DNA of 63,652 nt, the filler included, from Lenisia limosa (lineage: Eukaryota > Protista > Breviatea), in assembly GCA_001655205.1 (NCBI GenBank). It is 11 parts of 11 records of this genome, joined end to end, with 100 filler letters (N's around TTAATTAATTAA, not from the genome) between each part and the next. Parts side by side here need not be neighbours in the genome. Positions count along the whole stretch, not along the records: positions 41,378 to 51,924 come from LPNZ01002283.1; positions 52,025 to 53,412 come from LPNZ01008841.1; positions 53,513 to 54,556 come from LPNZ01002457.1; positions 54,657 to 56,832 come from LPNZ01009858.1; positions 56,933 to 59,368 come from LPNZ01009620.1; positions 59,469 to 62,289 come from LPNZ01002030.1; positions 62,390 to 63,652 come from LPNZ01002211.1; 4 more parts are not named here. The stretch is one strand, 5' to 3'. Made by a program: the position numbers and the translations under genes. Every line of letters begins with the position of its first letter. The stretch's first letter is position 1. Positions 10,791 through 63,652 of this stretch are shown in pieces. Below the pieces are notes generated by a model. It saw nothing but the letters and a program-made list of their open reading frames with translations. It did not search any database and was not told the origin of the DNA.

Positions 10791-10818
10791 AATTCAATAG
10801 TCAACATGTGACCCCACT

Positions 10819-10917: not shown

Positions 10918-10940
10918 ATCAATATGGGGCCTCACCCCAC

Positions 10941-12392: not shown

Positions 12393-14378
<1,986 letters not shown>

Positions 14379-41774: not shown

Positions 41775-44700
41775 TCACCCAATCATTTTTCTTGCAACAC
41801 TGTGGACACCACTTTCTGCGTGCCTTTCCCAGCATCTTGTAAAAAATAACAAAATGGCTACCCCTCGTCCACAATTCAACAGCCACCGACTGAAAAAAGC
41901 AGGGCTGGTGGAAGATCTCTGGATGTGTACCGGCTGCTGAGTGAGGAGGAAGAACAATCAGATAAGTGTTTCTTATTGCTCTAAAAGAGCAAGATATTTA
42001 TACTTAATGAAAATTTCAAGATGAATACCCACAGTGGGTCGCCTTGGAAGGTCTGGTGAAACCGCCTGTACATTTGTAACCTGATCAGCGAGGAAAGAAA
42101 GTGGTGATGCCACGGTCTTATGGGTCTGATCGGAGATAAACAACTTTATGTGGGAATAAAAACCAAAATAATCATATTCATTTCTAACCTGCGTTGCGGA
42201 AGGCTCAGCAGTGGGGGATGGTAAGATTGCATTCGGTAGATTTTGAAGAGAAGTATTGTGAATGGACTGAACTGACAGCCTTGGAATGTCCTTAAGCGTA
42301 AAAAGAGTGAGAAAAGAAAACATCAGGGGAAAGAAGGCAGGAACTACACAACCATCAACATGCATCCTACCATATTTGCACCTCCCGTTATGCTGTAATA
42401 ATCAGGATGCTGATAGGTGGGTTCAAGATTATCGTTTCGTTTTGGCGACAGTTCAAATTTATCCAAAGACCCAAATGAACTTGAGCACAATGACTCCATG
42501 TCAACATCAACATGTTCGCTTTCTTTGAAATCTTGAACTTCATTGGACCCAAGCTGGTTGCGTTTTTCATTCACCTTGAGTATAAAAACAGTAGTAGAAA
42601 ATAGTGTATCTATCTATCAATACTAACCTCCGCCATGAAGAGAAACTGTTGGCGCTTTTGACCCATCTGCTTAGTTCTCTCAACACGCTCCTTTCTACGC
42701 TGCTCGAACTCCGTCTTTCGTTTTAGTGCACTTTCTTCTCTACGTTGCGCAGCAGCTGCTTGGCGGTCTTTCAGGTCTTTACGGGACCTGGGCTTTGGCT
42801 GGCTCGACTTGAGAGTCAAAATCGTTCCTTTCAGAATATGGTTGTTTTCATTTGTATTAAGCCATGCATGCGAAAAAAAATATTTTAACAAGAGCTTCCC
42901 TACGGTCCACAAAATATGAAATGCATGTAGCTCTCATATGTAGCTCTCATATTACTGAATGCTAAGAAGTGTTTCACTGGGAATTTAGTTATTTGTCAAC
43001 AAACCATTGGAAGTTGGGGCTTAGCGATACTCAACATATCGTCTCCCTGTGGGGCCAGGTTCTCGGGTTGATTTTGTGGATGACTTGGTTTGTGTGTCCC
43101 AGGAGTTGGCTTTGCAACGGGTATTTCCAATACGGATGCTCCAAGACGGCTTTGTGAAGATTTTGTTGGCGTTGAGTGCAGTCGGTTAAAGAGAGCCTGC
43201 AACATCAATGTATATACAATAAAAGGTTCAACAGCAGTCTGCTTGGTGTTACAAATTAGAAAGTAGCTGTTGTATGTTGAAATGACAAACAGATAATTCA
43301 TTTAGCTTGTTCCAACCTCTCTTCTCAGCTTAGCAGCAGATTTTTGGGATGTAGACTGGGGGTTTGGGGAAGATGTAACGGGATTTGGTTTATTTGGGGA
43401 GGGTGGAGAAAGCATATCACCCAAGGAAAACTCATTTGGTGGAACAGCACTCTGTTGAAGATGTTCTTCATCTAATCCGAACATCAGGGCAGAAAGCAAA
43501 AGAGAGAATTTTGGGAGGGGTATATATACAATGAATGAGAGTGTTAAAACAGTCAGATAACTTTAATCTCCTCCTTCATACCAAACACCTGAGCATTGCC
43601 TTGGGAGGGAGGTTGATGGATCTCGGGGAAACGTGGTTGAGGAGGGCGTTTAATTGAGTGGACAAGGGGCTGTAATAAGCTGGGTTTTGGCTTCGTGAAT
43701 CTGGTCTAGGTTTATCAATTAACGTTATCGAAAAACAAAACGCTTTCAAATTAAACAATAATAGAGCAATGAATTCGAATATTGCACCTCAGTGACTTCA
43801 TCAAAATGCCTCCGCTTCTTGTTCTGATAGAGCTTCACTTTCGGTTCCAAACTATTTATTGAGAATTTATCGAGAACTCAGTCTTTTTGAGAACCGAAAG
43901 TAAACCTCTAATAAATAATATCAATTTTAACATGGCTCTTTTGAACCGAAAGTGATTAAAGACTTCTGGTTGCAGTGTGGGGCATTTTCACCGTATTAAA
44001 AAAATTACCACACAAACACACCTCCATATCATTCATCTGCTGTGAGATTGGGCTGTACACTTGGTGCTGACTCAATAACAGCGAAGCCGTACCAGGCTTG
44101 GATGCCGCCCTTGGCTGAGATTTTACAAGTACTAAACAGTCAAAAACTAAGCAGCCGAATCAATGTGTGATCGACAGTATAGTGGTCTTTATTGGAAAAC
44201 AGGGATGCCGATATTGCTTACTTGCTGACGAAGGTGGTGGCTGTAAGAGAGAATTCGGAATACCCAAAGCAGAGGCCACCGAGTTTGGGGCTACAATGTC
44301 AGCATTTCTCAGCGTAATTAAGTAAAATGCTGAAAACAATTGGAACCATGCAAATCACAAACCAGTTAAATGCAATCAACTCTTCCTCCTACATAATGAA
44401 CCTTTTAAGGTGAATGTGGAACGACCATTTGTGGGTGGTAGATTCGTGTCTATATGGTAACTATATCACCCAAAAATCCAGATAACGTAACAATAATTGC
44501 AAGATAGCAAACATTGCATTTGCAGATGCTCTGGGGAAATCGCAAACGGCTCATCATCACTCTCATTTGGTTGATCAAATGATCCAACAGAGGCCCAAAC
44601 AAGCGGGTCGCGAGTGGGTGTTACAGGGGCAGGAGGCAGGTCTAAATTGACGGTAAAGGGTCCAGATAATAGGTGGAGAGAGGGTAACAAAAGGAAGAAG

Positions 44701-46690
44701 AGTGGGTAAACTATTGCCCCAAAATGTGAAATGCAAATCAAAGAGTTGGGAGATACGCTTGGATAAATAAAATTATCATGTTTTCATTAAAGAAGTCCAA
44801 TTATTGGTATGAAAATGCAGTATAATAGCAATCTCAGCTCAGAGGTAAAAAAAAAATCAAATCAAAGATCCTCTGAGGTCACACCTTCGATGTCAGGAAG
44901 ATCAAGAATATCATCGAGAGTAAGGGCAGATGGGGAAATCTGGGAACTGGTTGAGACAGCGGTAGCTGAGGCAATTGGAGAACGGGCCGCTTTGGATCTG
45001 AGGGTCAGAAGAATATACCTGGTAGTATTTTGAAATAAAAATATAATATTATCTTGGATACCACAGCATGACTATAAAATCATATTTTAATGTCAACGGG
45101 ATCCATTTCTACCTAGTTGGTGTTTTGATTGCTGTTGGGGCTGAGAGCCGCTGAACCCATTTGCTCCTCCTTTCTTGAGCCGGAGATATCACTGCCTTCT
45201 TCTAACACGGTGTCATTTAAACAAACAAAAGGAATGGAAAGAGATATAATTACAACTAGTATAACTGATATAATATCATATCCATATATTGTAAATTGAA
45301 TGAAGTTTGCACAAGTCACGGAGGTATTTAAAAGCAGGGTGCCAAAACGAAGAAGACTCGGCGTTGCTACCGAGACTTCTTCCAGCTGTAAAAACCCAAT
45401 AGCCAACACACATCATGTATGGGGACAGCATCTGTCTCACGAGCTGGTGGAGGATACTCAAAGGTTGGTGGAGTAGTTACTGGAAGGGAAGAATCTGGGG
45501 GGGGGGGGGTAAATTGGAAAATAAAGAAATAAAAAACAAACCAAAATCACCTTTGTTGGCTGAAAAATGACATCTATAAAAAAGGAAAAGAAAAATACTA
45601 GCAGATACAGCTTGAAAAAAGGTAAACAGTTCACAATATGATGTCCAAAAGAAGCATCTTCGGCAAAAAAACAATACAATAATATCAGCACTATCGCAAA
45701 CAAAAAAAAAAAAATTCAAGTTATCGCTTTGATTTTTTAATTCTCACCAATATGAACCCTCCACAAACATAATGAGGGTCGGGCATAACCATCCTTTCGG
45801 CGAAGAGGTGTGGGTGGCAAATCTGTAAAAATAAAAATGCAATACCCCCATTTAATAATGATGCGTTCAAAAACTAAAATAATATCATATCGTATTTATC
45901 ATATACTTTGTACATACATGATATATCCTGTTCAGTGCATTATATCATATTATATCATATTAAATTGTCGTTAATGTACCTTTCCCATCTAGAACAGCCA
46001 GGCAAGGCAACAAATGAATTATTTGGGCCCTGTAGTGCTTTCGCCTGAAAACACAGTAAGAGTGTAAAGTGAAGGCTACCTACCTTGAAACCGGTGTGTT
46101 TTGGGTATCCAAGTTCTGGAGGTTTTTGAGAACTGCAAGTGGTCGCAAAGCACTTGGAGAGAGAAGATGCGTATTGGCCAGATTCAAACTGTTTGAGGAA
46201 TGAAGAAAAGTATGTCAATACATAGTGATGTAATTCTTAAAGTAGCAATACAACTTGACCCAGCAAACGTTACAAGAGCATGTGGGATATCATCAATTAC
46301 CGCGAGAGGATTACTACTGAGGTCAAGCCATTCAAGTGAAGCAAGTTGGCTTATTCCTGGGAGGTGAGGGACAAATATGCAAGAAAGGAAGTTCCCATTC
46401 CCACTAACCCATACAAGACTTGAGATTGTTGTTGGAAAGTACCAAAACACGTAAAGCAGGAAGATACAACGCTCCAATACATGTTATTTGGTTTGAATTA
46501 AGGGAAAGTCGCTTTAGAAAACCGTTACCAAGTCCTTCTAGTTCACCTTGACAGTCAGAAAAATATCCCAGACAAGTGTTCGCCGGGTAACTTACGTATT
46601 TCATTGCATGACAGATCAAGTGATTCACATTGGAGACTTCTAATGTCAGGGCAACGTTGGATGGACTGCTCTAAGCCTCGTCAACATAAG
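41775..46690 (-). CDS. SDS22-like leucine-rich-repeat protein with LRRcap and long low-complexity/coiled-coil C-terminal region (5' part in N gap)
   Basis: ESLDLSCNEI, FLKRLSLNSNQI, LRVLVLSNNNL, LEWLDLSSNPL, LNLANTHL, LQNLDTQNTPV and LRRcap HYRAQIIHLLPCLAVLDG. Downstream minus-strand S/P-rich and charged (QRREESALKRKTEFEQRRKERVER) exons are assumed to belong to the same gene. Confidence 0.6.
43828..43910. mobile_element. R2 MITE copy
   Basis: TIRs TAGAGCTTCACTTTCGGTTC / GAACCGAAAGTAAACCTCTA; no TSD retained. Confidence 0.7.
45497..45610 (+). repeat. R1 copy abutting a 3' splice site of the LRR gene
   Basis: G-run + taaattggaaaat...aaatcacctttgttggctga; the acceptor AG (minus strand) is at 45495-45496. 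Confidence 0.7.
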
Positions 46691-47544
46691 NNNNNNNNNN
46701 NNNNNNNNNNNNNNNNNNNNNNNNNNNNNNNNNNNNNNNNNNNNNNNNNNNNNNNNNNNNNNNNNNNNNNNNNNNNNNNNNNNNNNNNNNNNNNNNNNNN
46801 NNNNNNNNNNNNNNNNNNNNNNNNNNNNNNNNNNNNNNNNNNNNNNNTTTCACATTTCGAGTTTTTAAAATCTCACTCAATCTCTTCTATTCTATTCTCT
46901 TCATATATATATATATATATATATATAATCAACGACGACAGACTGTACCCAACCGGCGAACAAGCTAGGAGGTGTAAAGAGTGGGGGGATCGGGTCCCCC
47001 ATTTTACGAAGTATTGTACACGAAGTCCACGTCATCAAATCAGAATTATTCCATTTTCAATTCCCAGCTCGGGTCATGCAGGGCCACGGGAAATTTTCAA
47101 ATGTTAAAAAATGTGGAAGTGTCATTGTTATGAAGCTCTTATGAAGAGAAACAGGGAGAAACAAGTAAATGTAGAGGAAGAGAATGAGGATGTGATGATT
47201 TTTATTACAGAAATATCCAAAAATGAATAAAGATGAGAGTGTAACAGAAACAATTTAGGAGTATAGAAGAAGAGTGAAGCAAAGATGAGTCAAGATAAGG
47301 AGAATACTAGTTTGACAGGCGAAATCGGTTATTCTACGACCTGAGAACGCCCAAAATGATGAAGGGAGAAGTGAAAAATTCGAAACAGCTTGCGCCCAGG
47401 TAAAAATACGCATCATCAGTTATGGAGTTATGGGAGCCTGTCCCCCCCCCCCCCCCCNNNNNNNNNNNNNNNNNNNNNNNNNNNNNNNNNNNNNNNNNNN
47501 NNNNNNNNNNNNNNNNNNNNNNNNNNNNNNNNNNNNNNNNNNNN

Positions 47545-47648
47545 GTTGGTTTTGTTGTTATCAACTTATCAACCCTTGTGTGTTGTTAGCCAATTCATCT
47601 TGGGCTTTTTTATTTTGGTTTCATAAATTTTCCGATTGTACTCCCTCC
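47545..47648 (-). repeat. R1 copy
   Basis: ttttgttgttatcaac...cccttgtgtgttgttagcc...gggc...tttcataaattttccgattgtactccc. Confidence 0.8.
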
Positions 47649-48556
47649 CTTCTCCCCTTCATAGGGATGGGTGAGTTATCTGCCGACTGCTTCATGTGTC
47701 AACTTACTGAGTGAACGGCCTATTCCCCCCTCAAAACAATAACATTACGCCCCTTCACATGGCTGCCGTCAAGGGTATTGAGGCTTCTGAACGCCAAAAT
47801 TGAGGTGGTGTATAATGGGGACCGAACCGGCTTGTGCCCATGTAAAAATACGGCTGCCAAGAATAGGCTTCAGGTTGTCTTTGTTCAACGTCCCTGTATA
47901 TATATAACTTCCTAGTATAATATTAATATGGTAGTATGTCAAACGTTCAAAAAATAGGTATAATGGGATTAAAGCGATTTCGTCTTGGGCGAGAATATAA
48001 TGTAGCAGTTTCTCAATTGCAAGGGCCACAGAGTTCTCCAAAGTCAAGTCCCAGGCCAAAATACCTGTTTCCCAAATGGATCACTGTCCATAATAATACG
48101 TGAGGAGTGTTCCTTCTTGTATTCGACTTCGGCACGAACTACACTTCCAAATGAGGCAGTTATACTCTGCTTTTCCGTGGAATATTGCAAGAAATATGCA
48201 CCTTTCTATATATATTGTCGTTTTCTAGGTAATAATAACTTGTCCTGAAATATTAGGGCAATTTCAAAGTCAAATCGTATAGTTTTCAAGTCTAAAATCA
48301 CACAAAGAGCTAAATGCCATTAATTTAGATGATGATTTTAAACAGAGACATTACTGTGCCCTATAAAGGTTCAACTAATAATCCCACGAAACGATTAACT
48401 CAAATTATACATTTGTCCACCCCAGGCCCCAAATCGCAAGAAGGTTACAAAATGTTTATGTTTTTTAGTATGTCCAAATGATGTCACTACCAATTCAGAA
48501 ACAAAAATCGGTTAAATAACGAAACAAATGTGTACAGAACGGTAAAAAAAAATAGG

Positions 48557-50338
48557 CTAATTGTCTGAATTGTTGGTGTTAATACGGTGAAGAAGTCCCT
48601 AGATTGTCAGATACAACAACCCATAAGTGTGAAGTTATGTATGCCGGCAATAAACAGTATGTGTACTGTAAATGCAGCAACATACGCAAAAGACAGAAAA
48701 GGTCAAAGAATGAGTTTCTGACTTACATTTCTGCCCAATCTGCCAACCAACACCAACATACTTGGATTTCCTTGGCAGGGTTTAGGTTTTTGGGGCAAGT
48801 ATTGGTACAGTTCTGAATGAAATGACATCGGTTTACGCGATCGGGCTCTTCATTGAGATACTTCAGTCGTTCAAACGCCTCACCGTCACGGCTACAACGT
48901 TAGAAGAGCTTTTTTGGCTCATACACCAATGTGCACCCAATTGAGTTGATATTTGTACACTAATCTACAAACTATTCCCTTTCAGTAAACTTGATAGGCC
49001 ACACACAATTTTATCCAAACAGCCCTCCCACGAGTCTTTAACCCAGCGCGAAGCATGGAGGAGAGCAGAAGGACCAAGGTAAATGTCAGAGCGCCACCAG
49101 TAGCTCGGACAGGAGGTGCTGCAACAGAAGCACAGAATACACTGAGTGATCAATGTTGGGTTAACCACAGCAGCATATGCAGAAATGGAAAGTATTTTGG
49201 ACAGAATGTAAAGCTACACACACCTTATTTTTTGGTGAAATTGATTCAGATATAACTACAGAAAGATCTTTTTCGGAAAAACAACAACAAAAATCCGGCA
49301 TTATTTTGCAAAATTCTTCCAAGTTTTACAAGGACGGAATCCCCCAAAAAAAAAGATTGGAAATCAAGAATATAGAGTTAAGTCTGCTCCAACCTCGTAT
49401 TGTCCATTCAACTTCTGGCGATCTTCCTTCGATTGAATAATCTCTTTGCCGTCAACAGGTAGGGACGTTTCCTTTGGCTACGTGTGTAATCATATATCCC
49501 CCCTCCCCCTTCACAAAGGTTTGATGTCAAATCATTCTCTTGACTCAAAAGAGCTGATACAAAAATTTTCAAAAAACAAAATATCTAACCTGGAGATACG
49601 GTTGGACAGCTGCATGGGCCTCATAAAGCTAAAAAAACAATGAAACCGCGTCCACATAAAGGCACAAACACCCACAAAAACTCACTTTGGTTAAATCAGT
49701 AACAAGGTCCTTGATGATTGTCTGATGTGGAAGAGGTCTAATTTCTTCAGACTGAAAAAATCAGCTTTCCAAGTACGTTCGATTTGGTTGTAGAAAAGAG
49801 GGTTTTACATCTTACCCCTTTTTCGGAAATCGGGGTGATACATGCAAGGCGGGGCTTCCCATTGATAAACATTGCACAAGATCCACAAATACCTGAAATA
49901 TAATGTGTCATATATAACTCAGGGAAACAAAATCTTGAATGAATATGCTATAATCCCCCAAATCAGGCATACCTTCACGACATGAACGGCGGAATGAAAG
50001 GGAGGAATCTTGTTTGTGTTTAATCTAAAATATATTACACATCGAAACCATTACCCTATATTACCAGTAGCTCAAATACTCACCTCATGCAAAGCATCAA
50101 GGACCATTGGGCCACAATCTGAAAGATCAACGTCATATGAGACCATCTTTGGGGTCTCTTCCGCGTCACGATTAAACCTTTCAATTTTAAACCTCTTCAT
50201 CTTCTGAAAGGAGTCAGAAGAGCAAAATAACAAAAGGAAACTAACCGGAACTGCAGTTGAAAACGATCTGGAGGCATTGTTGTAGAATGAAGTAAGTAAA
50301 ACATTGGTCAATGATCTCACAAGGCCGTTGGCTAGCAT
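48557..50338 (-). CDS. SDHB: Mitochondrial succinate dehydrogenase iron-sulfur subunit
   Basis: Presequence [10 protein letters not shown]...RSFS; [10 protein letters not shown]; [20 protein letters not shown]; [16 protein letters not shown]; [16 protein letters not shown]; [21 protein letters not shown]; last exon [13 protein letters not shown]. Confidence 0.95.
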
Positions 50339-50670
50339 ACTGTACCTAAAGATCGGAGAAATGGTTTCTGATGCTTTCCCTTTTTGCAAGTTTTACTTAT
50401 ATATATGGTTTACGGGTTCGTTTGTGTGGTCTGAGTGGTGAGTTCCGAAAACCAAAATCCCTCCCAAAACGCAAATACTTGGATGGGTTTTCCCCCATGT
50501 AATTATCATTCCCGCCAGCATTGAAATCCTGCATTCCCTGCCATCCTGCCCCTCCCCCAACAACAACCGACACCAACAACAACTGCAGCAACACTGCAAA
50601 CAACAGAGAGACAGATAGTAACAAAACGGCACCCCACACAAGTTTACACCGCCACCACTGTACATATAAG

Positions 50671-50909
50671 ATGGTGAAGATTAGTGAAACTATCACCTTG
50701 ACTCTGGCTTTCTTCTGCCTTGTCTTTCTAAAAGTGAGAAAGTGACACTCAAGTGGATCTGATATAATGAAGTAATTGGAAAATTGTTTTTATATTTGCT
50801 GGATACCATATGCACTTCAAATATTCTCTCTTCTTTCTTCTAATATATCAATATATCATAAGAACTTTCATTATGATTAATAATTAAAGAATATTAATTC
50901 TTTTTATTT

Positions 50910-50954
<45 letters not shown>

Positions 50955-51478
50955 GCTTATTAATATATAAGATATTGGATGGATGTGAAGAATGTGGAAT
51001 GTTGTGCATGGAGGAAACTAACCGTCGGTCGATTTTTGACATATGATGTGCTTCTTTTTGCTTCCTGTTTAGATCTTGCTGCATTGTTAACTAATAATAT
51101 GACCGTTACGTTTCTAATTCCTGGCAGGTTAGTGCAGGCAGCAATGGTAACTATACTTGGACCCCCGCCAAAGACTTTACTTTAACGGGCTACTCGATAT
51201 TGAATGGCGAGAAAGTTCCTTTTAGGTGAGATGGGCGTGACCGCAAGAGTACACTTTATAATGGTATTTTCAGGCTGATTTTTCTGGTGGATCTATTCAC
51301 ATGGTAATATTTAATTTTGACATTTTAGGTGGTATTCGAGAGACAATGCAAGGGTATGCCATCATTAGTTTCATGGATACTTCATTCCCTTCTCTTCACC
51401 CTCTCCCTCTAGAATGTCCGTTTTGAAACGCTAGTCATCTCTGGACCTGTCATGTCCATCATAACTGATGAAGATGTG
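50671..51478 (+). CDS. Hypothetical secreted protein (3' end unresolved)
   Basis: In-phase exons MVKISETITLTLAFFCLVFLK|VSAGSNGNYTWTPAKDFTLTGYSILNGEKVPFR with a signal-peptide-like N-terminus; later exons ADFSGGSIHM and NVRFETLVISGPVMSIITDEDV. Confidence 0.55.
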
Positions 51479-52268
51479 GTAGGTTGGGTGTGGTGTAATT
51501 AGTTGTAGTCAACAGAAAAATATGGGTAGTATATTACAGCATCTTACAATCCTTTTCGGGGAAGTTACTGCCAAAGAATCCTGCCATTTTTTTGGAAACT
51601 GTCGTTGAATTAAATTTGAGCAATGTTCCTTTCTCATAATACAACCCTAATTGGCCAAAACCTTTCCTTTGAAAAAATGCATAGAATGAAAAGGGATTTG
51701 AGAAAGCTAAGGGGGATCTCACAGATACATCTTTATTTTTTATTCTCATTGCTGTATACAAGGGGAATTGTAAGCTGACACAAAATATTGGCGAAGTATT
51801 AAATGTTTAGTTTTATATTGAAACGAATGTATTTTGTGTATTTGAAGGCCACGCTTCTTCGACACTTACAATCCCACTTAATACTTCTACCTGAAAACAT
51901 CACTATATAGCTACTATATATGCGNNNNNNNNNNNNNNNNNNNNNNNNNNNNNNNNNNNNNNNNNNNNTTAATTAATTAANNNNNNNNNNNNNNNNNNNN
52001 NNNNNNNNNNNNNNNNNNNNNNNNCGTCCACACCATCACAATTATAAGAGATATTGGATTATAGTATGAAATTAATTCACCCAATCATTTGCCTTCAAAC
52101 TCTGTGCACACAACTTGTTACACAATCATCACACCCTCCCCACTGACACTCATTCTACAATCATCATAGAGCCCTGACACTCATTCCACAATCATCATAG
52201 AGCCCTGACACTCATTCCACAATCATTATACAACCCTAATACTCATTATAATCATACAGCCCTCCCAC

Positions 52269-53168
52269 CCGAAAGCTCCCTGCGATATCGGCTTGATGAT
52301 CTGAAAGTCGTTGATAGAGGGGGTCTGAAGGGCCCTGCGGACTACGGGCGAACTGGGGGTGAGGGAGGTAAGAGTGGAAAGGGGAAATAATAATAATAAC
52401 AATATGTAGCAATGAAAAATAAACAATAATAATCATAATTCGGAAAAGATGGGGAAAATGATATTTATAGATAGTTTATGAGGAAGAAGTGATATTGGCC
52501 CACCTGTCATTAGCAGTGACACTAGATGTACGCTGTTGCCGAACAGCAGCTAAAAATGTAAGACAATCAAAGAACGCATTGTATTAGTTTTGAGGAATAT
52601 GTTAATAGAACAAGGTAAAAAAACAAAAGCCATTTTACACTCTCAAATATCGACGAAAATAACAGCACTTCTATGACATCAATTATACAATGTCAAAGCT
52701 GAGAATATACCCCCTGACACCACACATCGTATAAATTCACACACATCGTATAAATTCACACACANNNNNNNNNNNNNNNNNNNNNNNNNNNNNNNNNNNN
52801 NNNNNNNNNNNNNNNNNNNNNNNNNNNNNNNNNNNNNNNNNNNNNNNNNNNNNNNNNNNNNNNNNNNNNNNNNNNNNNNNNNNNNNNNNNNNNNNNNNNN
52901 NNNNNNNNNNNNNNNNNNNNNNNNNNNNNNNNNNNNNNNNNNNNNNNNNNNNNNNNNNNNNNNNNNNNNNNNNNNNNNNCCATCGTATAAATTCACACAC
53001 ATCGTATAAATTCACACACATCGTACATATATATTCACACACATCGTATAAATTCACACACATCGTAAAATTCACACACATCGTATAAATTCACACACAT
53101 CGTATAGGCTCGGGAGTGTTGGACCTCAACCGGTGAATCTCGGCCATTTCGCCTCTTTTGCTCGTGAG
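52269..53168 (-). CDS. MAST/Greatwall/IRE-type AGC protein kinase, fragment at the start of the kinase domain
   Basis: Exon 52352-52269 encodes SPVVRRALQTPSINDFQIIKPISQGAFG, the PSIxDFxIIKPISxGAFG signature of this subfamily; two small upstream exons. Confidence 0.75.
52725..53105. repeat. Minisatellite, about 21-bp unit (partly N)
   Basis: catcgtataaattcacacaca repeated on both sides of an N gap. Confidence 0.9.
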
Positions 53169-53190
53169 CTGCGGGGTAAGGAATTAGAGG

Positions 53191-53310
53191 ATTGGAAATT
53201 TATGAAACAAAAAATCAACCATGTTAGCTGACAATAAACGACGGTTGAAACAAAAAAAAACATACAAAGCCCAGGCCAGTAACTTCTGCAGCACCGCATC
53301 CCATCACTCC
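53191..53310 (+). repeat. R1 copy in kinase intron
   Basis: attggaaatttatgaaac...gttagctgacaa...aaagcccaggccagtaacttctgcagcaccgcatcccatcactcc. Confidence 0.85.
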
Positions 53311-53512
53311 AGAGTACAACGAAGGAAATATCAATGAAGAATATTACAAAGGAAAGGAAATACCAATAAAGAATACTACAAAGGAAATACCAATAAAGAA
53401 TACTACAAAGGANNNNNNNNNNNNNNNNNNNNNNNNNNNNNNNNNNNNNNNNNNNNTTAATTAATTAANNNNNNNNNNNNNNNNNNNNNNNNNNNNNNNN
53501 NNNNNNNNNNNN

Positions 53513-54273
53513 AGTGCCTTGTGTAGTCACCCGAATTGTTTCGACGATCTCAAGATCTTCAGGGAAGGTCCTACAGAAAAAACCTCGGTGTGCTGAGGGT
53601 CAATTGGCAATCAGTATTCTTCACCATCGTCTTTCAACCTGTCTTTCAACCTTCACCATCGTCTTTCAACCCGTCTTTCAACCTTCACCATCGTCTTTCA
53701 ACCTTCACCATCGTCTTTCAACCTTTACCATCGTCTTACAACCTTTATCGTCATCTTGATCACCTTTACCATCGTCATCATCATCACACCATCGTCATTT
53801 CCTTTATCTTCATCTTCATCATCATACCATCTACATAGTACATCATCTTTATCACCTTCATTTTCTTTACCATTCTTTATCTTCGAGGGATACATAAAAT
53901 ACGTATCATATATATCATATATTATAGAGTGTTTCTTTAACCTCACATTTTATAGAAAGTTTCTTTGACATTTTATAGGACTGTTGAAGTTCGCAAAACG
54001 GCAGTTGTTGAGATTCTTGCCAACAGTCCGCTTCCCCTTGAACCCTATGCGTCTCTCCCTGCTCTTGGACGGTGGGGGTTATACAAACTGTGGACGGCTT
54101 CGGCCAGATACAACCTTGTTTTTATTTCTTATTGCAATATATTACATATTAATTTGGTTCTGAAAGTCCAAAAGCCAATGTCATTTTAACATTTCTCACC
54201 CTTCAGATTCTTGTTGCGTCACGAAGGGCAAACCGTCGCTGCCGGAATAGTTACTAAGGTATACCAGGCCTGA
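53513..54273 (+). CDS. HBS1L: HBS1-like translational GTPase, C-terminal domain III
   Basis: VPCVVTRIVSTISRSSGKVLQKKPR|TVEVRKTAVVEILANSPLPLEPYASLPALGR|FLLRHEGQTVAAGIVTKVYQA*. Closer to recalled HBS1 (LGRFMLRYGGSTIAAGVV) than to eEF1A or eRF3. Confidence 0.75.
53610..53740. repeat. Minisatellite, about 21-bp unit, in HBS1L intron
   Basis: ttcaccatcgtctttcaacc repeated with variants. Confidence 0.85.
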
Positions 54274-55974
54274 TTTCACTCTGATTCCAATGTATACTAG
54301 TTTTTCTTCACTTGGCTGCTTCTAATAGTAAATCCATGGGAAATAATAACCTACAACTGATGGATTGTTTGGACGGCTTTAGCCAGATACAACCTTGTTT
54401 TTTATTTCTCATTGCTATATGATATGTATGTCAGATGATATATTTACATATTAGATAGATAGAATTCTATTTGTTCTATAGTATATATAGTATATAGTAA
54501 AAAATATACAGTAATATACTATACCACCATGATTAGCGTGATGGTGTCCAAGACCCNNNNNNNNNNNNNNNNNNNNNNNNNNNNNNNNNNNNNNNNNNNN
54601 TTAATTAATTAANNNNNNNNNNNNNNNNNNNNNNNNNNNNNNNNNNNNNNNNNNNNCGAAGTCTGACAAGTCAATAGTTTTCATCTTTTAACTCTTTTCT
54701 TGGGGATACTAGGCCCAAAGGGGTGCAGGGAAGTACTATCACAAGTAAATAGTTAAGACTGTTACACCCCTCCCATACATCCAAGAAGAATTGGCAACTC
54801 CTCAACAAATCGCGTGCTGTAGCCCTCTACCATCTTGAAAGGCTGGGGAGTGAGAAAATAATAATAAAAAAATTATAAAATAGAAAAATAAATAATAATA
54901 ATTATATTAAATAATATAAAAAAGAGATAAAACACTAATAGATCTGTTTCTCATATATGATATGATATGATAATCCCCCCCCCCCCCCAANNNNNNNNNN
55001 NNNNNNNNNNNNNNNNNNNNNNNNNNNNNNNNNNNNNNNNNNNNNNNNNNNNNNNNNNNNNNNNNNNNNNNNNNNNNNNNNNNNNNNNNNNNNNNNNNNN
55101 NNNNNNNNNNNNNNNNNNNNNNNNNNNNNNNNNNNNNNNNNNNNNNNNNNTGTTGGCTGACAACACACAAGCAGTCGCTTATACAGCATCGCATCCCATC
55201 ACTCCAGCGTACTAGAATCGCAAACAAAGAATCCATAAAACAACCCAAGTTAAATAACAATTGGGATATACCCTCCCATCAAGGGACTTCGCACCGTCTA
55301 CGTTATTCCCGACCCTCCACACGTCCTCAAGCGATGGACAAACATCGACTACGGATGAATATTTGATTCCACTTTTTGGCGATTTTCAGTTCAAGTGCAA
55401 GAACCGGAAGAAGCTGTGTTGTAAGTTTGCTGGAAGTGTCATAGATACTTTTCTCCTGCATCATTTTCTGACATACAGGATGATGGGTTTAAAAGCAGAA
55501 AAGCTTTGTCAGTGTTTGTTTTTCATTTCTTATTGCTAGTGTTTTCTGACAATACCGACAATGCAAGGCTTAGATAAGCATAAATTAGTACAGCAAAAAT
55601 CGATTGAGGCAAAATGCCGAAAACTGGTACATGCAGAGAAAAAAAAAGCTGGAACTGTGGAGTCAGAAGATGGTTGAAACTAAGATGCGATTGAATCATT
55701 GGGTCTTAAAGGTATCTATGAAAGACCCTGAGCTTGAGAGCATTTAGCCAACCTAATAAGACTATGTTAACAATCTGACGTTAATCGGATGCTAATGTAG
55801 AATTTAAAGCAAGCTTGGACCTGCCTTTGTTTTTTTTTTTGCAAGAAAGATAAAAGTTGTTGATTACGATACACAGAATATACATCATATCATATAGACA
55901 CATGTAAGAAAACAGGGCTTATACCCCAAATAGACAACATGCCCCTCTTCTTTGAACCATAAGACAAGGTATAG

Positions 55975-56122
55975 TCAGGGTTTCACTCACTCCGGAAAAT
56001 GAGTGAAGTATTCGATAAATCCTCGAGAGATTTCGACATATTTCGATTCGATATATCATATGTATATATTTCGATAAATCTTCGATAGTTCACCATCTTT
56101 TACGTACCGGAGTGAAGCCCTA
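55975..56122. mobile_element. R2 hAT-type MITE (longer variant)
   Basis: Ends (T)CAGGGTTTCAC...GTGAAGCCCTA; flanks AGGTATAG / AGTTATAG (7/8). Confidence 0.75.
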
Positions 56123-56168
56123 AGTTATAGTCTTTTGGACCTTAGGAAAAACGAGTTGTTTGGCCACA

Positions 56169-56832
56169 TCACTCACCAATTCCCTCAGGAGTGATATAGC
56201 GGTAGTAGATCTCACTATACTCCAACTTGGACAGGCCACTTGGGAGTTTCGATGGAGATAGGCCTGAAATATGGGATGTTAGGGGGGGGGGTGAGNNNNN
56301 NNNNNNNNNNNNNNNNNNNNNNNNNNNNNNNNNNNNNNNNNNNNNNNNNNNNNNNNNCACACAGACTGGCAAGGAAGGCGGAACCAGAGAAGATGAGTCC
56401 CGAGCCACAAATACTGCGGGTAACAGGCGGATGCGCAAAGAGAGGGTTTCCTAAAACGGAAGGTGAATAAAGGTTTCCTAAAAAGGAAGGTTAATAAAGA
56501 AATACAAAAAGGTGATTTCTTAAAAGGAAGTTTGCCAAAAAGGATTTACTATGTAAAATAGTATCTATTTGAAAAACAAAGATCCCCTTAGTAGCGTATT
56601 AGGATAACTATTACCTCAAGTGAAAAATATTACAATAGCTTCACTTTTGTTCCAAAAAAGACCTAATCCTCGATAAATCCTCGATAGGTACTTGATATTT
56701 TTTCAGTCTTTTGGAACCGAAAGCGAAGCTCTTATTACCTTTAGTGAGGCTTGAGGGCTGGGCGAAGGCGCGACCAAGGTTGTTAAGGAGAACAGCAGCC
56801 TCGTCACTGACTATGATGTGCTGCATGGCCTC
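56169..56832 (-). CDS. Hypothetical protein fragment
   Basis: Exons EAMQHIIVSDEAAVLLNNLGRAFAQPSSLTK|GT and ...LPSGLSKLEYSEIYYRYITPEGI|GT. Confidence 0.35.
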
Positions 56833-57139
56833 NNNNNNNNNNNNNNNNNNNNNNNNNNNNNNNNNNNNNNNNNNNNTTAATTAATTAANNNNNNNNNNNN
56901 NNNNNNNNNNNNNNNNNNNNNNNNNNNNNNNNTCACGCTTATAAGAGATATGAATGATAGTGTAATATTAATTCACCCAATCATTTGTCTTGATCCTGAA
57001 AACGATTGGCAACAGATAAAGCTCAATATCCATGTCAGGACTTTTGTGGTCAGTATATACTCAAACAGTACCCCTCCTCCCCTTTATTAAACACAAACGA
57101 AAGAGTAACTTGGCCATACACATAAAAGAGTAACTTGAC

Positions 57140-57630
57140 GATTTGGGCTTTTTTAATTTCATAAATTTTCCAATTTCACCCCCCCCCCCCCGNNNNNNNN
57201 NNNNNNNNNNNNNNNNNNNNNNNNNNNNNNNNNNNNNNNNNNNNNNNNNNNNNNNNNNNNNNNNNNNNNNNNNNNNNNNNNNNNNNNNNNNNNNNNNNNN
57301 NNNNNNNNNNNNNNNNNNNNNNNNNNNNNNNNNNNNNNNNNNNNNNNNNNNNNNNNNNNNNNNNNNNNNNNNNNNNNNNNNNNNNNNNNNNNNNNNNNNN
57401 NNNNNNNNNNNNNNNNNNNNNNNNNNNNNNNNNNNNNNNNNNNNNNNNNNNNNNNNNNNNNNNNNNNNNNNNNNNNNNNNNNNNNNNNNNNNNNNNNNNN
57501 NNNNNNNNNNNNNNNNNNNNNNNNNNNNNAATTTATGTAACAAAAAATGCCCAAATCAACCCTGTTGGTTATCATAACAAAAAAAAACAAAGACCAGGCC
57601 AGTCTCTTCTACAGCAACATCCCCATCATT
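57140..57630. repeat. Two R1 copies in inverted orientation flanking a long N gap (others at 6655-6692, 55151-55205, 58590-58632)
   Basis: 57140-57190 reverse (gggc...ttcataaattttccaatttcaccccc); 57530-57630 forward (atttatgtaac...gcccaaatcaaccctgttgg...gaccaggccagtc). Confidence 0.75.
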
Positions 57631-57676
57631 CCAGTAAAACAAAGAAATTCAGACGATGAATATTGAAGGTGGGAGG

Positions 57677-57774
57677 TATGGCTTCACTTCAGTTTGAACA
57701 ATAACGGTAAAATATCGATAGTTTTCGAAGATTTATCCAGAAATTCGGTCTTTTTTGAACCGAAATGAAGCCAA
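57677..57774. mobile_element. R2 hAT-type MITE
   Basis: TATGGCTTCACTTCAGTTTGAA...TTGAACCGAAATGAAGCCAA; flanks GTGGGAGG / GTGGAAGG (7/8). Confidence 0.8.
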
Positions 57775-57980
57775 GTGGAAGGTTTAAATGTGTACGTATG
57801 AGGGGTGGGGGGNNNNNNNNNNNNNNNNNNNNNNNNNNNNNNNNNNNNNNNNNNNNNNNNNNNNNNNNNNNNNNNNNNNNNNNNNNNNNNNNNNNNNNNN
57901 NNNNNNNNNNNNNNNNNNNNNNNNNNNNNNNNNNNNNNNNNNNNNNNNNNNNNNNNNNNNNNNNNNNNNNNNNNNNNNNC

Positions 57981-58810
57981 CTTCCATATAAGGTAACCCA
58001 CCTGGGAACTGAGCGTAGACGCCGTGTCCCTCCGCGGCCGAGCTAACAACCTTCTTTTCGCTCCGGAGAAGTCCGGTAGTACTGGGTCGGGCCGAATCAG
58101 GAGGTTGTGCGTTCGGGTCGGCTGTACTGCTAACCGATGGATCGGAATGACATCGGCCACGGCCTTCGGACTTGGGGTCTTCGACCGGGGATAGCATGGG
58201 GGCTCTAGAGGTGATTATGATAATGATTATGATGTTGATGATGTTGATGGTGATAATGATGATAATGATGACGATGATGGTGATGATGATGATAATGAGG
58301 TGAGGTTGTTTTTGTTAAGAATGGTAGCGTATGAATCAAGGGTGACAGTCACGAAATGAGCTCTAAAAACAACAAACCTGGGGGGAGGAGGGGACGTGGA
58401 AGGGTTGTTGTTGGCAAGGGNNNNNNNNNNNNNNNNNNNNNNNNNNNNNNNNNNNNNNNNNNNNNNNNNNNNNNNNNNNNNNNNNNNNNNNNNNNNNNNN
58501 NNNNNNNNNNNNNNNNNNNNNNNNNNNNNNNNNNNNNNNNNNNNNNNNNNNNNNNNNNNNNNNNNNNNNNNNNNNNNNNNNNNNNNNNNAACAAAACAAA
58601 CAGGGCTCTTCTGCAGCACCGCATCCCATCACTCGGGGGGCAAAGTTGACCATTTAAGAACAAAAACAAAAAAGGCCGTACACACAGCTATATAATATAC
58701 AGAAATGAAATACCCCAAGTGAAGCCCTAAAGATGCCCCACCGGACAGGGGTCGAAACCAGGATTTCTCTGTTGCCGCGGGGGCCTCCAAGAGGCTCAGG
58801 AAACTCTGCA
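57981..58810 (-). CDS. Hypothetical low-complexity protein fragment
   Basis: GC-richer minus-strand segments with open frames and donor sites (e.g. CCAG|GTGGG near 58000), separated by repeat-filled introns. Reading frame uncertain. Confidence 0.2.
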
Positions 58811-59723
58811 AAAGTTATATATGGCTTCACTTCAGTTCGAAAAAGATCGGTCAAATAGCGACAATTATCGAAGATTTATCGAGGATTTATTGAGAAATTC
58901 CGTCTTTCTTTGAACCACAGTGAATCCCTGAGAATAGGGGTATAATGAGGGGAATTCTGGGGGGGGGGGGGNNNNNNNNNNNNNNNNNNNNNNNNNNNNN
59001 NNNNNNNNNNNNNNNNNNNNNNNNNNNNNNNNNNNNNNNNNNNNNNNNNNNNNNNNNNNNNNNNNNNNNNNNNNNNNNNNNNNNNNNNNNNNNNNNNNNN
59101 NNNNNNNNNNNNNNNNNNNNNNNNNNNNNNNNNNNNNNNNNNNNNNNNNNNNNNNNNNNNNNNNNNNNNNNNNNNNATTGAGAATTCAGTCTTTTTTGGA
59201 AAGATTTTCGTTCAATTATCTCTAACAAACGATTTTTTATACGTGGGGCTTCACAACAAAGAGCACAATACAAATTTATTGATGATTATCAAAAACAATC
59301 CAAGCACGAACTTTGGACAAAAGAAAAGGCTAAGATATCCCTATCATATCCTTAGCTTCTCTCAAGAANNNNNNNNNNNNNNNNNNNNNNNNNNNNNNNN
59401 NNNNNNNNNNNNTTAATTAATTAANNNNNNNNNNNNNNNNNNNNNNNNNNNNNNNNNNNNNNNNNNNNTTGAGTATAGTATGAGGGAGACTTTGGGATCT
59501 GGGGGGTACAAGTATTATATCAAATCGTATATGATATGCTCCAATATCTCTTATAAGTTAGTATGACCACTGCGTCCAGATACAAACTTCTTTAACTATA
59601 TTCACTTTGTGAGATTTTGATTTTTGAGATGTGTCAATTTCTTCATTTCTTCATCTGCTCTTAATTTCTACTTTTCTATTTCTCTTTTTTAAGAACATGA
59701 CATAGCAGCGACGATACACATAT

Positions 59724-59756
<33 letters not shown>

Positions 59757-59767
59757 AGATAGATAGA

Positions 59768-59850
59768 TAATCCAATATCTCTTATCAGCGTGATGATGTG
59801 GACGGCTTCGACCAGATACACCTTTATTTTTTATTTCCCATTGCCATATA
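59768..59850 (+). repeat. R3 dispersed repeat (other copies at about 1-15, 41715-41800 rev, 52025-52100 rev, 54088-54135, 54367-54420, 56933-56990 rev, 59538-59590)
   Basis: Shared string ccaatatctcttatcagcgtgatgatgtggacggcttcg(g/a)ccagataca(a)cctt...tttattt(c)tcattgc. Confidence 0.75.
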
Positions 59851-59895
59851 CCAGATAGATTATTATTCTGCGACTTTCACTAACTCCCGATGTAG

Positions 59896-59991
59896 GTAAT
59901 TGAGCAGTTGGAAGATTCCATTATCGCTGAAGAGACCTACCCTGGTTCAGCAACGTCGTTTTTGAAAAACATGGTTGGTGATGAACAGTGA
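59896..59991 (+). CDS. Terminal exon of an unidentified gene
   Basis: Strong CTAAC...TGTAG acceptor followed by VIEQLEDSIIAEETYPGSATSFLKNMVGDEQ*. Confidence 0.35.
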   Translation, partial: VIEQLEDSIIAEETYPGSATSFLKNMVGDEQ

Positions 59992-61261
59992 CCGGAATAA
60001 GTGTGCAATTAATTTTTGAGGATAAATTAGTGCTATCGTTACATTATGTTCCACTTCTCCTGTTTCACTTCAAAGTATAAAATTAATTCCTCAATTAATT
60101 GCGGGGAGTACAACTTCCAAGGTTTTATTATGTTTTAGCAGCCTGCTTATGTATTAAAACTATGATCTTTATGATCCTAGTTTAAATAGAGACTCTGTAT
60201 TTTGTAAATCATATGCATCTACACAGTGTCTTGACCGATTTTCCTTAGGAAATAAGAGGGCAAATCGGTCAAGACGGAGCCTTACTCGTGCGCCATGTGT
60301 TTTTGACTTTTAACCCTGCCAGGTTCTTTATGACGAGCCTCGGTGCTTCAAGGCGTGATTTAGTGTAAGCTTTCCATTGTATAAATTGTTTACCTCAACG
60401 TTTACAGAACTAAAGGTAGTGGTCACAAATCCGTACTATTTGAAGAACATGAGGTGGCGGGCCAGTTCAAGGCAAACGGAATGTTAAGTAAAACCGGAAC
60501 TTGAACATTGTGAAACGCCAGGGTCGAATTAAATAGAGGGTAATGTCACTGGGTTCCTAAAAAGACAGATGTTTTCGATCCTCGAAACTATCGATATAGT
60601 TTACTGGTCTTTTGTATTGAAGTGTAGTCCTAATGCAATATTCTGTGTTTTCTTAAAATCTTTATCATTAAAACAAAAACCATATTTATCAGTGGTTATC
60701 CCACGGCCTCAGTGACCACCTGACCATAGTTAATGTGGAATTAATTCCCTTCTGTTCATAAGACCCAATTCAATGCCGTAGTGGAATGTGACGCCACAAG
60801 CTGTATCATTTGTCAAAGATCTATCAATACTAAACAATCTTAAAGAAAACACTTGCCAAAGCCGAACATAACTAAAGAGAAAAAGGCATACAAACAAAAA
60901 TTAAATACAAAACTATATAAGCGGCGGAAGAACATCAAAGTTTTTGGTTTTAATCGGAGAGAGAGACTTCCTTGGATTTAACCTGAAATGTTATACAAAA
61001 CCAAGTCTGTAAAGATGAGAACTGCAAATTGGTGGCATTTGGCATGCTATTGGGTTACATAGCCCCCACCCCAAGAACAAACATCAAAGTAGTCCATTCT
61101 TCAACCCAAATGGCATCACATTATACTCAAATATGCCCTGTTCACAGGTAAATGCTACTAGATCTCCTGATCATCTTATTTCTCAATTCCGTTACCTGAC
61201 TTTCTCTAAAAATAAAAAACCAGCAATCGGACCAATGAAGCCGTAATAATACCCTTCCCAC

Positions 61262-62170
61262 CTCAGCGGTGTCATTTCCTGCTTTATTGGCCCGAGTAGC
61301 TGCGACGTGAGGCTCAAAGCCGTGGACTGCATAATTGGCGACGGCGTGACGCCATGAAGAACCGAAATTGCCGGCGAGTCCGTGTAGGACCCTTCTGGAC
61401 TCGTGTCGTCCTGGCTGACACTAGACTGGCGGACTAGAGGTTCGGAGACTGGGGTTGGTGGAAGAGGAGGCATTCGGAGCGAGTGGCCTGGGGGGGGGGT
61501 AAAATTGGAAAATTATGAAGTTGATAACAATAAAACAAAGCCCAGGCCAGTCGTTTCTGCAGCACCGCATCCCAGGTAAAATTGGAATCTTGGCGTAAAG
61601 GTACTTATCATGAACGTAAAATACTGCTTTTAAAAAATGGGAGAGGGGAGTGGGGTGAGTGAGAGAGGAGACAATTTGGAAAATTTATGAAACAAAAAAA
61701 GAGCCCAAATCAACTCTATTGGCTGCACGTGGGTTGATAACTACAAAATAAACAAAGCCCAGACCAGTGCACCGCATCTGGGGAGAAGGGGAGGAGCGGC
61801 TTTTACACAGTCTCAAAATAGTCAGGATTTCACGAGAAATCTTCGATAAATATTGATATTTCGGCGGTATTTTTCAGTCCATGGAGAAACTCAAGGTGTG
61901 AATGAACAAGATAGGCTGAAACAGGAACACCATCACCTTTTAAAATGAGAACTCTCAGTCTCCTTCAGCTAACCAAAATATCCTTTCAGCCCTAACCAAC
62001 CAAAAGATCCTGGAGTGGTCGGTTCCCGTCTATACGTGGGAGTGGTAGGTTCACGCCTATACGTTGGCGTTGCGGGCTCACGTCGGTATGTTGGCGTGGA
62101 CGGCTTGGAGCGACACGTGGGTGTGGTATGTCGACTATATTGATATGTGGGGGTCCGAGGCTCGCGGTAC
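61262..62170 (-). CDS. Disordered S/T/P-rich protein fragment carrying a TPTYRREP(A/T) nonapeptide array
   Basis: Exon 62170-62001 (YREPRTPTY...PSTPTYRREPATPTYRREPTTPTYRREPTTPGSF) splices in phase to exon 61487-61262 (GHSLRMPPLPPTPVSEP...). Confidence 0.65.
61490..61780 (+). repeat. Two tandem R1 copies (61490-61573, 61674-61780) in one intron
   Basis: Both match the R1 consensus; the first directly abuts the acceptor AG at 61488-61489 (minus strand). Confidence 0.85.
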
Positions 62171-62389
62171 CTGGAACCAGGGTTAACAAAAATGGTTCCA
62201 TTAAATCTCCACTCAAAAAAGGCTAGTCAACTAAATATGCGATTGTCTATCACTCCTGTCACTCCTATCCTACTATCGCCCCCCCCCCCNNNNNNNNNNN
62301 NNNNNNNNNNNNNNNNNNNNNNNNNNNNNNNNNTTAATTAATTAANNNNNNNNNNNNNNNNNNNNNNNNNNNNNNNNNNNNNNNNNNNN

Positions 62390-62472
62390 TGTGATGTTGT
62401 TATCAACCCTCATGTGTTATCAGCCAAAAGAGTTGATTTTGGGCTTTTTGTTAAATTTTTCAATTTACTCCC
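62390..62472 (-). repeat. R1 copy forming the 3' end of a WDFY3 intron
   Basis: tgttgttatcaaccc...cagccaaaagagttgattttgggc...aaatttttcaatttactccc, followed by atttcag|exon. Confidence 0.85.
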
Positions 62473-62479
62473 ATTTCAG

Positions 62480-63652
62480 CTTGCAGTCTACACTCTCAAC
62501 GGCACGCTAATTTGCCGAGGTCTTGTTGGTAGAGGAGACCATGGAGCGGTAACCAGCTTGAGCTTGGCTGAGGGCCCAGCCTGGTTGGATACTTCCGTGA
62601 TCATCACCGGTCACTTGTGCGGCGAAATTAGGTGGGATGTTAGGGAGTTAATTGATTTTTTTTTTATTATTAGTGTGTGGGGGAGGGGGCTACTACTGCT
62701 GTTATCACCATTATACCCATAAATTTTCAAATTTTACAGCCCATTCTGTTTTGTTTTCTTGTTTCGTATTATTCATTTTTACACACACACCAAACCATAT
62801 CCCTTTTTTATTATTTTTTATCATTGGTAATATGATAAATATAAATATTCTCATGATATTATGCCCCAGATAATTAATATAAATGTTCTATAAATATTGT
62901 CATATTGTTATTTTCATTTTTATGATTTACCCCGCCCAGATGCTGGAGTTTAGTACCCATCAATATGGCCACAGACGAAATAGCCTCACAGCGGCTCAAT
63001 ATTCCCGAGTCCATGAAAAATGAAGTCTGGTGTAGTGGCAAGGTGACGGGGTTATGAGTATTGTCAGTAATATTCTTAATATTATTATTATTTGGATAAG
63101 TGTAAAGAGGGGTTAGGCGGTTTCATTATTTCTGAGAAAGGAGGAGGCAATTTACTATACTAAAACTGCCCATTTAAACGTGTATTTCCCATTTCTAAAC
63201 TACTCCACACCACTGAAACACCACTGCACGTTTCTCTCATATTTCCCCCTAACGACGCAGCGACAAACTAGTCCCGGCGCGACCTGTGATGCTACTCCCC
63301 ACGGTGATGGGACTTTCGGATGGGGCTTATCGCTACGACACATTCTCAGAACCCATGCCTCTCCGGTTACCTGTCTTTCGCTTACTTCGTATGAGGGATT
63401 TCGTTGGTATATTTCTCTCAAAAATACTAAATTTCTCGATAAATCCTAGAATATTGATATTTTTACCGGGCATTTTTGGAAAGTAAAATAGAATTACTGT
63501 TTTCAACATTGAATTTCCCTTTACCCCACAGGGACTTGAAAATGCTGTATTCTGGCGACTTACACGGGCGCATATACGCCTGGGCCCTTCCCGAGTCGTC
63601 TGTACATTGGCAGCGTGATGGTGACGCTCTCCGCTGTCCGCTGTGTTCTACT
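62480..63652 (+). CDS. WDFY3: WDFY3/ALFY (BEACH-WD40-FYVE family) C-terminal fragment
   Basis: LAVYTLNGTLI...WLDTSVIITGHLCGEIRCWSL, HILRTHASPVTCLSLTSDLKMLYSGDLHGRIYAW, then the FYVE onset HWQRDGDALRCPLCST. The BEACH domain itself is outside this contig. Confidence 0.8.

Follow-up and report, generated by a model that had tools for sequence, protein, structure and literature searches.

Introners are repeated sequences in the introns of unrelated genes. They reach both intron boundaries, and some supply a single splice signal and co-opt its counterpart; the surveys, in the sections cited here, require similarity up to both intron ends and filter out secondary insertions (PMC9860276, PMC12130899). 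In mammals, selection is described in the cited part of the literature as yielding an orientation bias of transposable elements (TEs) near exons, and TEs are depleted at acceptors (PMC3088655). Giardia, Spironucleus and Trichomonas have sparse introns with strict motifs and a fused branch point and 3' splice site, and the passages cited report that in Giardia and Trichomonas splicing is abolished when the fused branch motif is moved (PMC6679479). Among retroelements, the Chlamys Penelope-like elements of Craig and colleagues combine, in the sections cited, 5' truncation, partial tandems, (C)n targets, hidden target-site duplications (TSDs) and non-autonomous head-to-tail members (PMC8557442). 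Here we describe R1, an intronic repeat in a 63,652-nucleotide stretch (filler included) of the Lenisia limosa assembly GCA_001655205.1, hereafter the window. We favour, with moderate confidence, the reading that R1 is a non-autonomous retroelement that targets C-runs, is held at acceptors by mimicry of the branch point and is filtered by orientation.

The R1 family and its placement at splice sites

The window is eukaryotic, has 42% GC and contains numerous N gaps. Two public runs of one study were used: X1, a set of DNA-like contigs from which the assembly may derive, and X2, a set of poly-A RNA contigs. The latter confirm 14 GT-AG introns in three genes. Together with exon chains, curated manually with per-region self-trained gene prediction as a guide, these make up a set of 91 introns, 84 of them without R1. 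The chains are mostly stop-free, as over ~620 amino acids and 20 exons of a Patched-like gene, which has a Pfam Patched match. Pfam and PDB searches were uninformative for most short exons; on the basis of motifs, we tentatively use the names TRANK1-like, WD40/BEACH-like, Rim15/MAST-like kinase and DDE/pogo-like transposase.

Searched with a profile of its own R1 copies, the window gives 15 matches at E<=1.2e-5, against a best E=1.3 for the reversed-window decoy. With a copy at 2200-2343 that is split by N's (pieces at E 0.006 and 0.6), the window holds 16 copies, which bears out the initial annotation of about 15 copies in introns of unrelated genes. The repeat is real, but its length is ~135-140 bp instead of the ~150 bp first given. 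Seven near-full copies share 62-83% identity (gaps counted), and eight of 14 window copies have one common fixed 5' end. The sense strand has an intron-like polarity, with a G-rich start containing GT, a T-rich body, a branch-like motif and a C-run; we call the strand ending TTTTAC-C(n) the A strand. In X1, the summed depth over the copy at 12712-12850 reaches 16,000-212,000 against 16.9 on the flanks and drops back at both ends. This depth, from 896 aligned contigs, is not a copy number, but the surge marks R1 as a large family. Past the C-run end, the consensus of 36 X1 contigs continues with seven further G and is then no longer firm (agreement 0.41). R1 patterns had 0 matches in two metagenome scans and a viral one. 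Weak R1 alignments to the introns 49478, 49142, 29528, 62632 and 5263 were taken as compositional and left uncounted.

Copies from outside the window came from the bacterial metagenome-assembled genome (MAG) G001, one contig of which was matched by a pattern scan; 41 smaller G001 contigs were then scanned together with L001. Several contigs of G001 carry R1, R2 and R3 (the latter two being further repeats, see below) and intron-rich genes, and we infer that they derive from the same or a closely related eukaryote. Contigs C39, C43, C46, C67, C69 and C71, with R1, R2 or R3 next to intron-rich genes, represent eukaryotic contamination of the MAG. The scanned contigs hold 14 R1 pieces, 12 of them with an assignable host, across eight introns. 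All eight introns have R1 in sense (p=0.008) and seven have it flush with the acceptor, as predicted from sequence. This agrees with the initial view of R1 as a non-autonomous mobile element that is sense-biased and often flush with acceptors. The gene in L006 is stop-free over 12 exons when its R1 acceptors are used, and an alternative AG at 3854 breaks the frame.

Within the window, 12 sense copies in 11 introns face two antisense copies in two introns, close to the nine of ten copies that had been described as pointing toward the acceptor. Doubtful cases are the antisense copy 57126-57191 on an unplaced piece, the weak antisense copy 6381-6413 and the unassignable 47547-47652. In the window alone, the ratio of 11:2 introns gives p=0.02, and 11:4 with the doubtful ones p=0.12. 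With G001 added, 19 sense introns stand against two antisense (p=2e-4), or against four if doubtful cases are included (p=0.003). When only hits at E<1e-3 are kept, 6/6 G001 introns are sense and the joint ratio is 17:2 (p=7e-4, the N-split copy at 2205 still being counted). The copies 47547, L049:1448 and L052:3157, which have no assignable host strand, are excluded from all orientation counts. Run frequencies would lead one to expect 42% sense, and the observed 19/23 exceeds this (p=8e-5), so that selection on orientation is needed besides run-targeting.

R1 is also placed close to splice sites. For 11 of the 14 acceptors visible in the window and G001, at most 5 nt separate the terminal R1 from the AG. 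The flush window acceptors (<=5 nt after the C-run) are 45495 and 61488, both directly after the run, 53169 at ~2 nt and 62478 at 5 nt, whereas 12698 (17 nt) and 2412 (72 nt) are not flush; the distances first reported for all but 2412 hold. Acceptors 45495, 61488, 2412 and 53169 follow from stop-free exon joins and 62478 from a single open exon, and RNA contig cover is absent over 45495 and over the 47547 copy, which is evidence neither way. Both solid antisense copies start 1-4 nt past a donor GT (8500; 11681), a feature that the initial annotation had missed. One and the same R1 end thus faces the nearest exon in either orientation, at acceptors in sense and at donors in antisense. R1 lies closer to the facing splice site than uniform placement would give, both for seven window copies (p=0.014) and for five G001 introns (p=0.004). 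The half ending in CAG is missing in 3/3 antisense window copies and in 3/11 sense copies (p=0.055).

Host splice signals and the branch-point-like end of R1

The 84 introns without R1 nearly always have a GTNNG donor, and 69 have more T than A. Their C-runs of at least five (16) lie mostly in the 3' part and their G-runs of at least five (22) mostly in the 5' part. In 76 of the 84, a TNAY motif has its A at -8 to -13 from the intron end, most often at -9; the corresponding count in each of three control windows is only 23-25 of 84 (p=2e-16). From this position we infer that the native TNAY is the branch point. In the RNA-verified intron 13044-13206, an internal C10...AG without the TNAY motif is skipped, which means that a C-run plus AG is insufficient. 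The near-fixed short distance between branch A and AG is shared with the introns of Giardia, Spironucleus and Trichomonas as the cited passages describe them, but here the motif is a loose TNAY in a very intron-dense, repeat-invaded genome (PMC6679479).

Where R1 is flush with the acceptor (n=11), the A of its own TTTAC lies at -9 to -13 in seven cases and at -16 to -18 in three, and is lost in one. The R1 motif is the TNAY closest to the AG in ten of the 11. At the three non-flush acceptors, R1 is separated from the AG by a stretch that contains a host motif at -9 or -10. R1 had initially been credited with a 3' splice signal of its own in the form of a pyrimidine tract. This part falls away, as C-runs before AG are native to introns without R1; the likely useful part of the element is its terminal TTTAC. 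The expectation that the predicted AGs are used holds for 12698 (intron 12698-12961, RNA depth 132), the others being predicted.

Element class and competing explanations

Like introners, R1 is repeated in the introns of unrelated genes, and a role in which it brings one splice signal is akin to those introners that co-opt the other. Introners, as characterised in the sections cited, reach both boundaries, whereas R1 meets a boundary with one end only and does so in both orientations (PMC9860276, PMC12130899). No copy spans donor to acceptor, and in intron 12698-12961 R1 takes up ~140 of 264 nt. Intact 5' ends lie at the donor in 0/8 cases (>=55 nt away where visible), more than one copy can occupy one intron, and the single orientation expected of introners is broken by the two solid antisense copies. 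In an alignment of the R1 5' end to the starts of the 91 introns, no R1 intron stood out. The introns 8390-8500 and 6289-6462 were considered as whole antisense R1 relics and failed end-anchored tests against the 91 introns. R1 is therefore not a classic introner, as the initial annotation had held from its failure to fill the intron, and the suggestion that it creates introns is not supported, given the missing 5' ends at donors, the antisense copies and the negative relic test.

Truncation of R1 is one-sided. By hand tally over the window and G001, truncation affects the 5' side in 15 of the 28 copies where that side is visible, and the 3' side in 0 of 26 (p=5e-6), a pattern that selection could also cause. 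Head-to-tail joints are found in X1 (12847->12720) and in L006 (5301-5487). A C-run is present at the ends of R1 units, but not at the inner tandem junction of L006 (5346/5347), which means that the monomer ends TTTTAC and that the run is target or tail. As first described, no TSD is seen in nine copies with both ends, R1 copies show no poly-A tail, and there are no clear terminal inverted repeats; between the two ends, inverted repetition is imperfect and extends over only 5-7 nt, which had been overlooked. No hammerhead core pattern was found on either strand of seven doubled copies, and no stable or conserved RNA fold in five sequences (z -0.7 to +0.8).

This anatomy resembles that of non-autonomous Chlamys-type Penelope-like elements. 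With MRC1 and similar elements, as far as the cited sections describe them, R1 shares frequent 5' truncation, head-to-tail partial or multicopy insertions and the lack of a canonical hammerhead, and possibly also insertion at (C)n with a TSD that cannot be discerned; the R1 monomer is only ~135 bp, any tie to an element with a reverse transcriptase (RT) and GIY-YIG is putative, and a relation to splice signals, as seen for R1, is not among the features reported there (PMC8557442). Other classes were considered and rejected. A short interspersed nuclear element derived from tRNA does not fit, with 0 ARAGORN hits, no Rfam match, internal T4-T6 runs and a tail of C; nor does a retrozyme or snoRNA retroposon (no hammerhead core, no Rfam match) or a miniature inverted-repeat transposable element (MITE; only the 5-7 nt imperfect repeat and no TSD in nine copies). 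Helitrons have a 5' TC and a 3' CTRR with a subterminal hairpin. Such TC...CTRR ends are missing from R1, and its folding z is not significant.

Under the reading we favour, target-primed reverse transcription, primed at a G/C-run, would set the polarity of the insertion, yield 5'-truncated copies and partial tandems and mask the TSD. Insertion directly before a C-run-AG would displace the host motif, and the TTTAC of R1 would restore one at about the right distance. Antisense copies would be purged by selection, since their strand is rich in A and has at its end a C-rich CAG, a possible cryptic acceptor. The strand bias of mammalian intronic TEs and Alu is likewise explained, in the part cited, by selection against the cryptic-acceptor orientation; mammalian TEs avoid acceptors, whereas R1 accumulates there, and R1 appears to replace a constitutive branch point rather than to create alternative exons as Alu does (PMC3088655).

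In an alternative scenario, R1 carries or homes to the entire acceptor. Here, a mobile RNA ending TTTTAC-C(n)-AG, for which excised host introns may have served as template with their 3' ends, would pair with existing acceptors and overwrite them with a copy of itself. The identical TTTTAC-C9-AG ends at 61488, L001:619 and L006:5489 would fit this scenario, as would the seven of eight flush introns out of sample, the lack of a promoter-like tRNA head or Rfam match in R1, and the low depth of R1 pieces in RNA contigs (5.5-24 against 132 for PCYT2, although contigs cannot show RNA level). We consider it unlikely. The spacer from TTTAC to AG varies among the remaining flush copies, antisense copies end at donors without an AG, the inner tandem junctions have neither C-run nor AG, the fixed 5' end of eight of 14 window copies is unexpected from a variable intron template, and the excess of AG over other C-runs is not significant. 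We are likewise doubtful that R1 parasitises splice signals. In such a reading, it would be a retroelement without a promoter, its RNA would be the 3' end of excised introns, and base-pairing would guide it to branch-point-C-run-AG acceptors; thousands of genes would then splice via a branch point written by the element.

If R1 were instead mobilised as DNA (MITE-like or Helitron-derived) and inserted blind to splice signals, purifying selection alone would have to produce the bias, the truncation and the flush ends. The genome does contain true MITEs (R2) and DDE-type DNA transposons, the R1 ends do form an imperfect inverted repeat, the excess of T over A in most introns without R1 is shared by the R1 sense strand, R3 is sense-biased as well, and orientation bias driven by selection near exons is known in mammals. 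The same source, in the part cited, has mammalian TEs depleted near acceptors, where R1 is enriched (PMC3088655). Together with the missing TSDs and TC...CTRR ends, the lack of a stable fold and the strongly one-sided truncation, this makes a DNA element improbable. Were R1 an old introner, with introns that other insertions had since lengthened on their 5' side, this would explain the intron-like polarity of the sense strand and the many copies that end at an AG; such a history is very unlikely given the 0/8 intact 5' ends at donors, the alignment to 91 intron starts, and the occurrence of antisense copies and of several copies per intron.

Several observations weigh against R1 as a C-run-targeting retroelement that acts as a branch point. 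The R1 motif peaks at -13, the native one at -9. RNA supports only one of the 14 visible R1 acceptors (12698), and this one retains the host's nearest branch motif, so that the supply of the signal by R1 stays putative. R1 is probably the branch-point region of the flush introns, as judged from motif position. The AG could be carried by R1, given the identical ends at three loci, and R1 ends are followed by AG in 11/21 cases (hand tally) against 11/38 for other C-runs (p=0.10). Six G001 pieces are weak (E 0.002-0.22), and short weak fragments bias the sample towards the truncated, flush class. In the window, the hosts of three sense copies (55151, 57530 and 58589) are known from gene prediction alone. 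R3 is sense-biased without adjoining acceptors. R1 is therefore not alone in its bias, which points to a general filter for T-rich strands; much of the R1 orientation bias may be ordinary selection. No RT-encoding partner of R1 emerged from G001, where the one RT examined, of two, is of the group II intron type. Searches for spliced proteins with the exons of the TP-repeat, leucine-rich repeat (LRR) and kinase region found none, which is weak evidence.

Further features of the window and the meaning of R1

Table 1. R1 copies and the intronic repeats R2 (among others) and R3, with strand and placement. Positions are those of the window unless L006 is given.
Feature	Position	Strand	Placement and remarks
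R1, N gap 2231-2313 inside	2200-2343	+	sense, Patched-like intron 2077-2412, from profile match and exon chain; beyond R1, the 2412 acceptor has its own branch-like motif
R1, weak doubtful relic	6381-6413	-	antisense, Patched-like intron 6289-6462; E=0.014
R1, 5'-truncated	6653-6692	+	sense; enters N gap 6693-6799, which probably also hides a short exon (donor at 6809)
R1, 5'-truncated	8439-8497	+	antisense, minus-strand intron 8390-8500; G-run directly after donor GT
R1	10677-10788	-	sense, downstream of TRANK1-like donor 10940; 3' end and acceptor inside unsized gap
R1, 5'-truncated	11607-11675	+	antisense, intron 11293-11681; G-run 4 nt past donor GT; donor 11681 fixed by reading frame
R1, full-length	12712-12851	-	sense, PCYT2 intron 12698-12961 (RNA-verified); between R1 and AG, a branch-like motif of the host with its A at -10
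R1, 5'-truncated, with C13 and AG	45495-45572	-	sense, LRR gene intron 45495-45747; nearest TNAY is R1 TTTAC, A at -16
R1	47547-47652	+	profile match; host strand unassignable
R1, full-length, degenerate 3' end	53169-53317	-	sense, flush with AG 53169, kinase-like gene
R1, 5' part	55151-55214	-	sense relative to predicted minus-strand exons; 3' end within N gap
R1, 5'-truncated, C13	57126-57191	+	unplaced 260-bp piece between gaps; antisense if scaffold is right
R1	57530-57636	-	sense relative to predicted minus-strand exons; 3' end within N gap
R1, 5' part after C6 run	58589-58642	-	sense, intron 58378-58741; 3' end within N gap
R1, internal deletion, with C10 and AG	61488-61581	-	sense, intron 61488-62000; TTTAC A at -13; 12-nt repeat of own 3' end directly before 5' end, at 61581
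R1, second copy, upstream of the first	61656-61780	-	sense, also in intron 61488-62000
R1, 3' part	62390-62479	+	5 nt from candidate AG 62478-9, WD40-like exon; TTTAC A at -13; alternative acceptor AG 62485-6 possible
R2	3458-3554		
R2	10816-10925		
R2	17783-17883		
R2	43826-43914		
R2	55972-56124		
R2	56631-56738		
R2	57673-57781		
R2	58816-58935		
R2	61809-61895		
R3	41699-41811		
R3	51721-51761		
R3	52025-52112		
R3	54085-54149		
R3	54359-54429		
R3	56932-57003		
R3	59520-59600		
R3	59755-59857		
R3	L006 5097-5212		
R3	L006 7613-7685		

The five N gaps 6693-6799, 54991-55150, 57193-57529, 8051-8143 and 58972-59176 coincide with G/C-runs, and some of them probably hide short exons or more R1 copies directly 5' of C12-13-AG acceptors. 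R2 is a palindromic, MITE-like intronic family of ~100-110 bp with long terminal inverted repeats, which also occurs in G001 contigs. R3 is an asymmetric intronic repeat of ~130 bp, mostly sense and not flush with acceptors; about 9/10 placements are sense (hand-assigned, p=0.02). Two similar stretches of ~70 bp, at 47340-47440 and 47790-47893, flank the unassigned R1 copy 47547; they may represent a fourth family of repeats, lying between genes. L006 (1418-3753), L001 (~865-2635) and L049 (~1000-1815) contain DNA transposons that have terminal inverted repeats and whose transposase-like open reading frames are split by introns; the one in L006 lies inside an R1 copy within a host intron. The galactokinase-like label of L001 derives from one match at E=1.2.

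PCYT2 has a predicted microexon of 4 nt at 14232-14235 (-), which is needed for the reading frame. At 53513-54556, a C-terminal fragment resembling HBS1/eEF1A (Pfam E=0.014) lies on the plus strand, between unsized gaps in a kinase-like region of the minus strand, and is probably a misplaced scaffold piece. The window further contains a hybrid histidine kinase of ~30 exons at 27478-35827 (-) and a predicted HExxH metalloprotease-like gene at ~24000-27200 (+).

If R1 combines only C-run targeting with selection, it would be a modest variant of known behaviour. If it is a working branch point, it would exemplify a third way for mobile elements to relate to splicing, beside introners, which make introns, and Alu, which gives rise to alternative exons. 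Searches of open-licence full text brought up no comparable takeover of branch points by a mobile element. R1 would in this case seize the core signal of existing introns, a site that is normally purged of elements, and its 16 copies in 60 kb, with their near-fixed distance from branch to AG, would constitute a natural experiment on the tolerance of branch points and the homogenisation of intron signals.

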